A DNA stretch of 50,260 bases. Source: a virus (taxonomy: Duplodnaviria > Heunggongvirae > Uroviricota > Caudoviricetes). Within the stretch, counting starts at the first letter, position 1. Each line of letters starts with the position of its first letter. A program made the translations under genes and the position numbers. The stretch covers positions 1 to 50,260 of IMG/VR virus record IMGVR_UViG_2728369607_000007; one strand, 5' to 3'. Shown piece after piece: positions 40,408-40,656 of the stretch. The notes beneath the pieces are model-generated. The model was given only the letters and a program-made list of their open reading frames with translations. It was not told where the DNA came from and did not search any database.

Positions 40408-40656
40408 ATGGTACATGACCGCATAGCGGAGGAACTCGAGGCAAAAGGCTTTTACCGGAGGGCGTCGGCGCGATGGGGTGAAGTCATGCAACTGGTGGAG
40501 ACAGACAAGGAACGGCATCAGGTTACGATGCGACGGCTGGAATGTTCCAGGAAGGCACAGAGGCCACCGGAGCCGCCAACGGAGAACTACGCAGACCTGA
40601 GAAATGCAGTAAATCGCACTTATGCAGACATGGGGCTGAGCAAATTAGCTGAGTAG
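40408..40656 (+). CDS. PerC-family transcriptional regulator homologue (82 aa)
   Basis: MVHDRIAEELEAKGFYRRASARWGEVM matches the PerC/Pch N-terminal signature (ELEA.G.WRRAA.RW); internal ATG of ORF 40288..40656. Confidence 0.5.
   Translation: MVHDRIAEELEAKGFYRRASARWGEVMQLVETDKERHQVTMRRLECSRKAQRPPEPPTENYADLRNAVNRTYADMGLSKLAE

Follow-up and report, generated by a model that had tools for sequence, protein, structure and literature searches.

The occurrence of a PerC-family gene in a satellite island raises the question of whether such an island reaches into the virulence regulation of its host through ler, the master regulator of the LEE, as an earlier note on this DNA had proposed, or whether the gene acts on other targets or serves the island itself. 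The question is considered here for a gene found in a window of 50,260 nucleotides, which is the whole stretch of DNA analyzed (IMG/VR record IMGVR_UViG_2728369607_000007). The gene and its immediate signals are:

40408..40656, plus strand: PchE-type PerC-family gene, 82 aa (intact ORF, PF06069, identity to PchE, RefSeq)
39987..40397, plus strand: single-strand DNA-binding protein gene (ssb), immediately upstream of perC (PF00436, E=1.4e-15)
40396..40402, plus strand: Shine-Dalgarno-like GAGGGGG that overlaps the ssb stop codon (direct sequence reading)
40679..40702, plus strand: G+C-rich, intrinsic-terminator-like hairpin AGCCGGAGCAATCCGGCT with a T-run (MFE -15.7 kcal/mol, z = -1.9)

The reading frame opens with ATG at 40408 and closes with TAG at 40654-40656, giving a product of 82 aa (MVHDRIAEELEAKGFYRRASARWGEVM...GLSKLAE) that is identical to WP_000233314.1, labelled "PerC family transcriptional regulator" in RefSeq. 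The family identity proposed for this intact ORF was confirmed far beyond chance by Pfam PF06069 (PerC; E=1e-35, 122.3 bits against a gathering cutoff of 22.6, residues 1-78 on profile positions 1-77 of 90), as well as by a match to PHROG 994 (E=1.6e-38), and the protein does align with PchE, PchA, and PerC. The N-terminal signature had been given as ELEA.G.WRRAA.RW, which is approximate: the actual string is ELEAKGFYRRASARW, with Y in place of the W and S in place of the second A, although all residues that are near-invariant in alignments of 59-62 diverse members (L10, E11, G14, R17, R18, A19, R22, W23, and C46) are present. The PerC family is small, with 95 clusters at E<1e-3 among 1.84 billion representatives. 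Members were found on 138 plasmids, whereas sequenced phages are almost devoid of homologs (two weak tblastn matches in 50,697 records), so that no phage model system was found.

With regard to expression, the gap between the ssb stop and the perC start is 10 nt, and the GAGGGGG at the ssb stop codon implies that perC may be translationally coupled to, and co-transcribed with, ssb. This short gap, together with the coupled ribosome-binding site and the terminator behind perC, indicates that the gene is probably expressed as the last part of the ssb transcript. The hairpin lies 23 nt past the perC stop and is found at +23 in every locus that carries the 82-aa allele. A promoter scan of 39200-41400 detected no sigma-70 consensus promoter. 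The AT-rich gap at 39200-39400 was considered as the promoter region of an orf89-ssb-perC operon and rejected, as it is packed with iterons and is more likely to be an origin.

The element that carries the gene is approximately 16 kb long and has roxA (31330-32460, minus strand) on one side of its insertion site and phoQ (48800 onward, minus strand) on the other. Its further features are:

32604..32678, no strand: attL, one copy of the 75-nt direct repeat that flanks the island (repeat analysis)
32679..33929, plus strand: tyrosine integrase gene (PF13356, PF00589)
34304..34492, plus strand: alpA (PF05930, E=5e-18)
36183-36259 and 36281-36368, plus strand: isrK (66 bits) and C4 antisense RNA (77.6 bits), respectively (Rfam)
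37507..37806, plus strand: RgdR homolog, DUF4222, 99 aa (PF13973, E=2e-23)
37803..39212, plus strand: RepA-type helicase (AAA_25), the island replicase (PF13481, E=1e-43; annotated 'helicase RepA family protein')
39210..39423, no strand: iterons (AAAAGTGAG...) in the AT-rich gap from the RepA helicase gene to orf89 (repeat families)
39397..39977, plus strand: orf89 and orf104, two small conserved island genes (phrog_1231, phrog_27268; synteny)
40798..41022, plus strand: 74-aa accessory ORF (phrog_1957) in the variable stretch that separates perC from the capsid operon (PHROG match)
41033..41055, plus strand: second, identical terminator hairpin, after the 74-aa ORF (hairpin scan, repeat family)
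41074..41099, plus strand: three TTGTTC repeats in 10-bp phase, upstream of the capsid gene (motif count)
41314..47655, plus strand: cf-PICI packaging module comprising HK97 capsid, protease, portal, connectors, HNH, TerS, and TerL (Pfam, annotation of a relative island)
48645..48719, no strand: attR, the other copy of the 75-nt flanking direct repeat (repeat analysis)

Modules are thus ordered as integrase, alpA, C4/isrK, small genes, rgdR-repA-ori-orf89-orf104-ssb-perC-terminator, and packaging module, and Pfam analysis of all modules detected no tail or lysis genes in the island. [quoted passage not shown] The present island has all of these modules by Pfam, with att repeats 16 kb apart, and is a capsid-forming PICI of the EcCIEDL933/OI-51/Sp7 type in the E. 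coli chromosome; the description of the carrier as a satellite island was therefore correct. AlpA is the master inducer of Gram-negative PICIs, and induction by a helper phage via alpA and transfer with helper tails were demonstrated for EcCIEDL933 only (10.1101/2022.09.08.507074). Dozens of complete E. coli genomes carry near-identical islands (98-99% identity, 92-97% coverage), and the gene is again annotated there as 'PerC family transcriptional regulator'. Within the replication module, the unit AAAAGTGAGGNGTAAAA recurs at a spacing of about 84 bp together with GTGAG clusters at 39210-39423, which is probably the replication origin of the island.

Among otherwise syntenic islands the replicase has been exchanged: a RepA/AAA_25 helicase is present here and a DUF927 primase in O157 (positions 5829-7961 of that locus), while rgdR and ssb-perC are kept on either side, showing modular recombination within the replication module. 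Downstream of perC, a 28-nt segment with the identical terminator hairpin is doubled (40673-40700 and 41027-41054) on either side of the 74-aa ORF, and islands that share one PerC allele may have or lack this ORF cassette, indicating an indel-like, variable region before the capsid operon. The isrK/C4 RNA pair lies upstream of an Icd-like gene and constitutes a P1/P4-type antisense immunity module within the island.

The PerC family contains several subtypes, the group definitions of which have been published (PMC5931665), with PchA, PchB, and PchC being 104 aa long and nearly identical to each other. The window protein is 80% identical to O157 PchE (ECs_1588), including 54 of the first 57 residues, compared with 44% to PchA and 41% to EPEC PerC (pMAR7). 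By sequence it is therefore a group 3 (PchE-type) member, and at 82 aa and such identities it is not close to the LEE activators of group 1. Synteny agrees with this assignment. In O157:H7 PA20 and Sakai the roxA-phoQ site holds OI-51/CP-933C/Sp7, which is the cf-PICI EcCIEDL933 and is known to carry pchE (PMC3378721), and pchE lies between ssb and the 74-aa ORF/major head gene, as perC does here, with the HK97 capsid gene following; the two islands differ in their replicases, and PchE has 90 aa and ends with DGVSDEIWRNYPDS, where the window protein has 82 aa and ends with SKLAE. The gene is thus already known, as the counterpart of pchE in the OI-51/EcCIEDL933-type island. PchA/PchB/PchC of EHEC and PerC of the EPEC EAF plasmid share with it the Pfam family, the LExxG(F/L)YRRAAxRW...C core, small size, a helical nature, and carriage on horizontally acquired DNA, but they are strong activators of LEE1/ler, which the PchE type is not, and their settings differ, pchA being a moron in a lambdoid prophage and perC part of plasmid-borne perABC, neither of them a gene of a PICI replication module. 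A further PerC-family gene on an E. coli PICI, EcCIMP1_025 of EcCIMP1 (ISME J 2025, PMC11773190), encodes a protein that is, according to its authors, only about 40% identical to the EcCIEDL933-type protein.

What such a protein might do can be approached through PchA, the activation by which depends entirely on silencing by H-NS/StpA/Hha and which lowers the occupancy of H-NS at LEE1 (PMC4764244). This mechanism was shown for PchA only, by cell extracts and ChIP rather than with purified protein (PMC4764244), and its extension to the window protein, which is 44% identical, is by analogy the most likely mode of action. By this homology, the PchE-type protein would be a small all-helical factor that loosens H-NS/StpA/Hha nucleoprotein silencing, and most likely not a classical sequence-specific activator; the affected promoters would be a subset of those that are horizontally acquired or controlled by H-NS. 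An AlphaFold2 model built from 62 family sequences (mean pLDDT 84.5) predicts helices at residues 5-13, 16-29, 33-50, and 61-75 and a short terminal one at 78-81, in a fold that appears TPR-like rather than HTH. No solved structure was matched by sequence, and a Foldseek search with the predicted model returned nothing significant. Published over-expression of PchE, mostly from plasmids, repressed csgD and curli independently of ler, lowered adhesion, and raised flhDC and flagella, and native pchE drops on SOS induction (PMC6265319, PMC7369912). Likely responses to the window protein would accordingly be curli (csgD) down, flagella up, and a change of less than 2-fold at most in ler. Taken as a whole, the reading in which this PchE-type PerC protein, encoded at the end of a cf-PICI replication module, is co-transcribed with ssb and acts by H-NS-type anti-silencing is fairly probable.

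The distribution of perC among islands was examined in 80 IMG/VR loci with close PerC relatives, which were searched locally using the proteins of the island. The gene before perC was ssb in 65 of 72 loci and orf89 in the remaining seven. Among 77 loci with enough downstream sequence, the HK97 capsid module was present in 32 and absent from 45, the latter being classical PICIs with another morphogenesis operon in the same orientation. Because its upstream neighbor is constant and it occurs in islands with and without a capsid module, perC belongs to the replication module and forms its 3' end. Each of the 85 related copies has an intact reading frame (82 to 95 aa), and dN/dS was about 0.25 over codons 1-57, indicating that perC is under purifying selection and is maintained rather than decaying. 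Islands of this kind in E. albertii and E. ruysiae carry alleles with 49-60% identity; these two loci were the only ones recovered by a profile scan of genome contigs with the PerC alignment, so the cross-species context is thin.

The region in front of the capsid gene deserves separate consideration. TTGTTC-type motifs match seven times against 0.45 expected, all within the island, and 10-bp-phased TTGT(T/G)(C/T)CACG repeats occur at 32611-32634 (attL), 33978-34011 (minus strand, next to int), 41074-41099 (before the capsid gene), and 48662-48675 (attR). The three repeats at 41074-41099 were considered as a PerC operator for the capsid operon, and this candidate was rejected because the motif is also present at attL, at attR, and beside int. 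Since it travels with the capsid module and the att sites and not with PerC, a PerC operator is not the simplest reading, and these repeats are probably binding sites for the integrase arm or AlpA. If so, excision might be tied to the control of the capsid operon.

Several other explanations of the locus should be weighed against anti-silencing by a PchE-type protein. The proposal of the earlier note amounts to activation of ler/LEE1 in the manner of PerC and PchA/B/C, by which the island would raise type III secretion through perC. It draws on the shared Pfam family, on the reduced LEE expression after deletion of OI-51, and on a small but significant effect of PchE itself, which raised ler-lacZ less than 2-fold (ler rose 2.1-fold on over-expression), compared with at least 4-fold (about 5-8-fold) for PchA, PchB, and PchC and no effect for PchD (PMC5931665). 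However, identity to the proven activators is only 41-44%, the PerC-like proteins of EcCIEDL933 and EcCICFT073 had no effect on LEE1-lacZ as summarized in the part of PMC11773190 that cites Porter 2005 (PchE being likewise reported as inactive on LEE1), EcCIMP1_025 repressed LEE1-lux (PMC11773190), and mapping of the OI-51 effect identified RgdR (ECs1581), not pchE, as the LEE activator (PMC3378721). The RgdR homolog of the window is 78% identical to the O157 ECs1581 ortholog and retains R20-G21-D22, K35, and R61. Hence only part of the proposal stands: a PerC-family gene is indeed carried by the satellite, and the island may influence virulence regulation in its host, although, on the evidence, through another gene (RgdR) and at targets other than ler. 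As the PchE subtype reaches less than 2-fold on ler at most, the window protein would not be expected to act as a significant LEE activator, and ler activation through perC appears highly improbable. The 82-aa allele also lacks a C-terminal tail, written x(I/V)(W/F)R(N/R)Y or (E/K)I(W/F)RNY, that follows MG(I/L) in PerC, PchA, PchE, and most of the family, which speaks further against LEE activation and raises the possibility that recombination or deletion at the boundary of the variable region has replaced this tail and impaired the protein. The window allele ends with ...MGLSKLAE where O157 PchE has ...MGIDGVSDEIWRNYPDS; the (W/F)R tail belongs to the family consensus, the Pfam match reaches only to position 77 of the 90-position profile (leaving the last 13 positions unmatched), and DNA similarity to O157 pchE ends at nucleotide 227 of 249, placing the 3' end of the gene on a recombination boundary. 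Nevertheless, the allele is widespread, being present in 29 complete genomes as DNA of at least 99% identity, it is intact in each of 15 IMG/VR loci that include both island types, and the N-terminal core of three helices, in which conservation is highest, is unchanged. Functional impairment is thus improbable, while the tail-less allele may behave differently or more weakly.

Two other alternatives concern the mode of action and the beneficiary. The protein might be an ANR-like anti-activator, a negatively acting protein of three helices whose binding partner would be a second regulator (H-NS or an activator of the AraC family). ANR proteins such as Aar have three helices and a conserved Cys (PMC4038620), both shared with the PerC family, in which Cys46 is near-invariant, and the proteins are similarly small. 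The NCBIfam model ANR_neg_reg (NF033650) matches residues 7-52 on profile positions 9-54 of 54 (E=0.0024), but at 17.7 bits, below the curated cutoff of 32; 45 of 62 diverse PerC-family members match at E<0.01, all below threshold (best 3.2e-7), and short relatives of the window protein reach 31.6 bits. This profile similarity suggests, as a lead, that PerC and ANR may form one superfamily, a link hinted at by the authors of EcCIMP1 (PMC11773190). The predicted TPR-like fold is a protein-binding one, and the repression of csgD by PchE and of LEE1 by EcCIMP1_025 would fit a negative role, the latter indicating that direction and targets vary within the PerC family. On the other hand, EcCIMP1_025 is a distant relative (about 40%), PerC-family proteins carry a further helix and a tail at the C-terminus, the island lacks an AraC-family partner gene, and, according to an unpublished remark, PchA did not co-precipitate H-NS; an ANR-like anti-activator is therefore considered unlikely. 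It has also to be asked whether perC serves the island itself, as a regulator placed between early and late genes that would activate the packaging operon or helper genes (e.g., those for tails) or relieve their silencing, with host phenotypes as side effects. The gene invariably closes the replication module and is followed directly by the packaging module, in both cf-PICIs and classical PICIs with the downstream operon in the same orientation, which is consistent with such a role, as are purifying selection, the terminator between perC and the capsid operon together with the failure to detect a sigma-70 consensus in 39200-41400, the conserved position in islands of E. albertii and E. ruysiae, the alleles of which are 49-60% identical, and the near absence of homologs from phages (2 of 50,697 records). 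However, the TTGTTC triplet, the sole repeated motif upstream of the capsid gene, is common to attL, attR, and the int-alpA region and absent downstream of PerC in capsid-less islands, pointing to Int or AlpA; the region is not markedly AT-rich (GC 0.45-0.49); over-expression of alpA alone drives the reproduction of EcCIEDL933, the cf-PICI papers do not implicate perC, and PerC variants occur in only some E. coli PICIs (Fillol-Salom et al.). Such a role is rather doubtful on balance. A broader and equally tentative proposal, to which a low probability is assigned, combines elements of both: the PchE-type PerC, rather than being accessory virulence cargo, would be a conserved part of the module by which Escherichia PICIs replicate and would have a function in the satellite cycle (e.g., relieving nucleoid silencing of island or helper genes), and the PerC family as a whole would represent a branch of the ANR superfamily with a C-terminal extension that acts by protein contacts via a TPR-like three-helix core, not as DNA-binding activators.

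Anti-silencing by a PchE-type protein at the end of the replication module remains the preferred reading, and it has some consequences for annotation. A PerC-family match alone is no basis for the label of ler activator, and subtyping is needed; in this island the experimentally supported link to the LEE is RgdR. The perC gene is strictly syntenic and under purifying selection, and its native role in PICIs could be approached with the existing genetics of EcCIEDL933. The gene itself carries little weight as a discovery, as it is annotated in RefSeq, its O157 ortholog has been named pchE and treated in several papers, and PerC variants of PICIs were noted in 2018, when their presence in some E. 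coli PICIs was already stated (PMC6092414), and in 2025.

Some observations were also made outside the island. For two distant family members only short contigs were available as surroundings, one of them adjoining a fimbrial usher. On a metagenomic contig (positions 41-2941), a 56%-identical PerC-family gene lies directly downstream of a fimbrial usher gene (PapC), so that the family extends beyond PICIs, prophages, and plasmids. In the window itself, positions 1-27100 hold the late genes of a prophage that resembles lambda, with a gpA terminase, a portal of the lambda type, a tape measure, gpJ, and a tail fibre; this region ends beside potB/potA, only about 5.5 kb from the cf-PICI, a neighborhood similar to that of Sp6/Sp7 in Sakai. 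As a helper, this prophage could supply tails to the cf-PICI.
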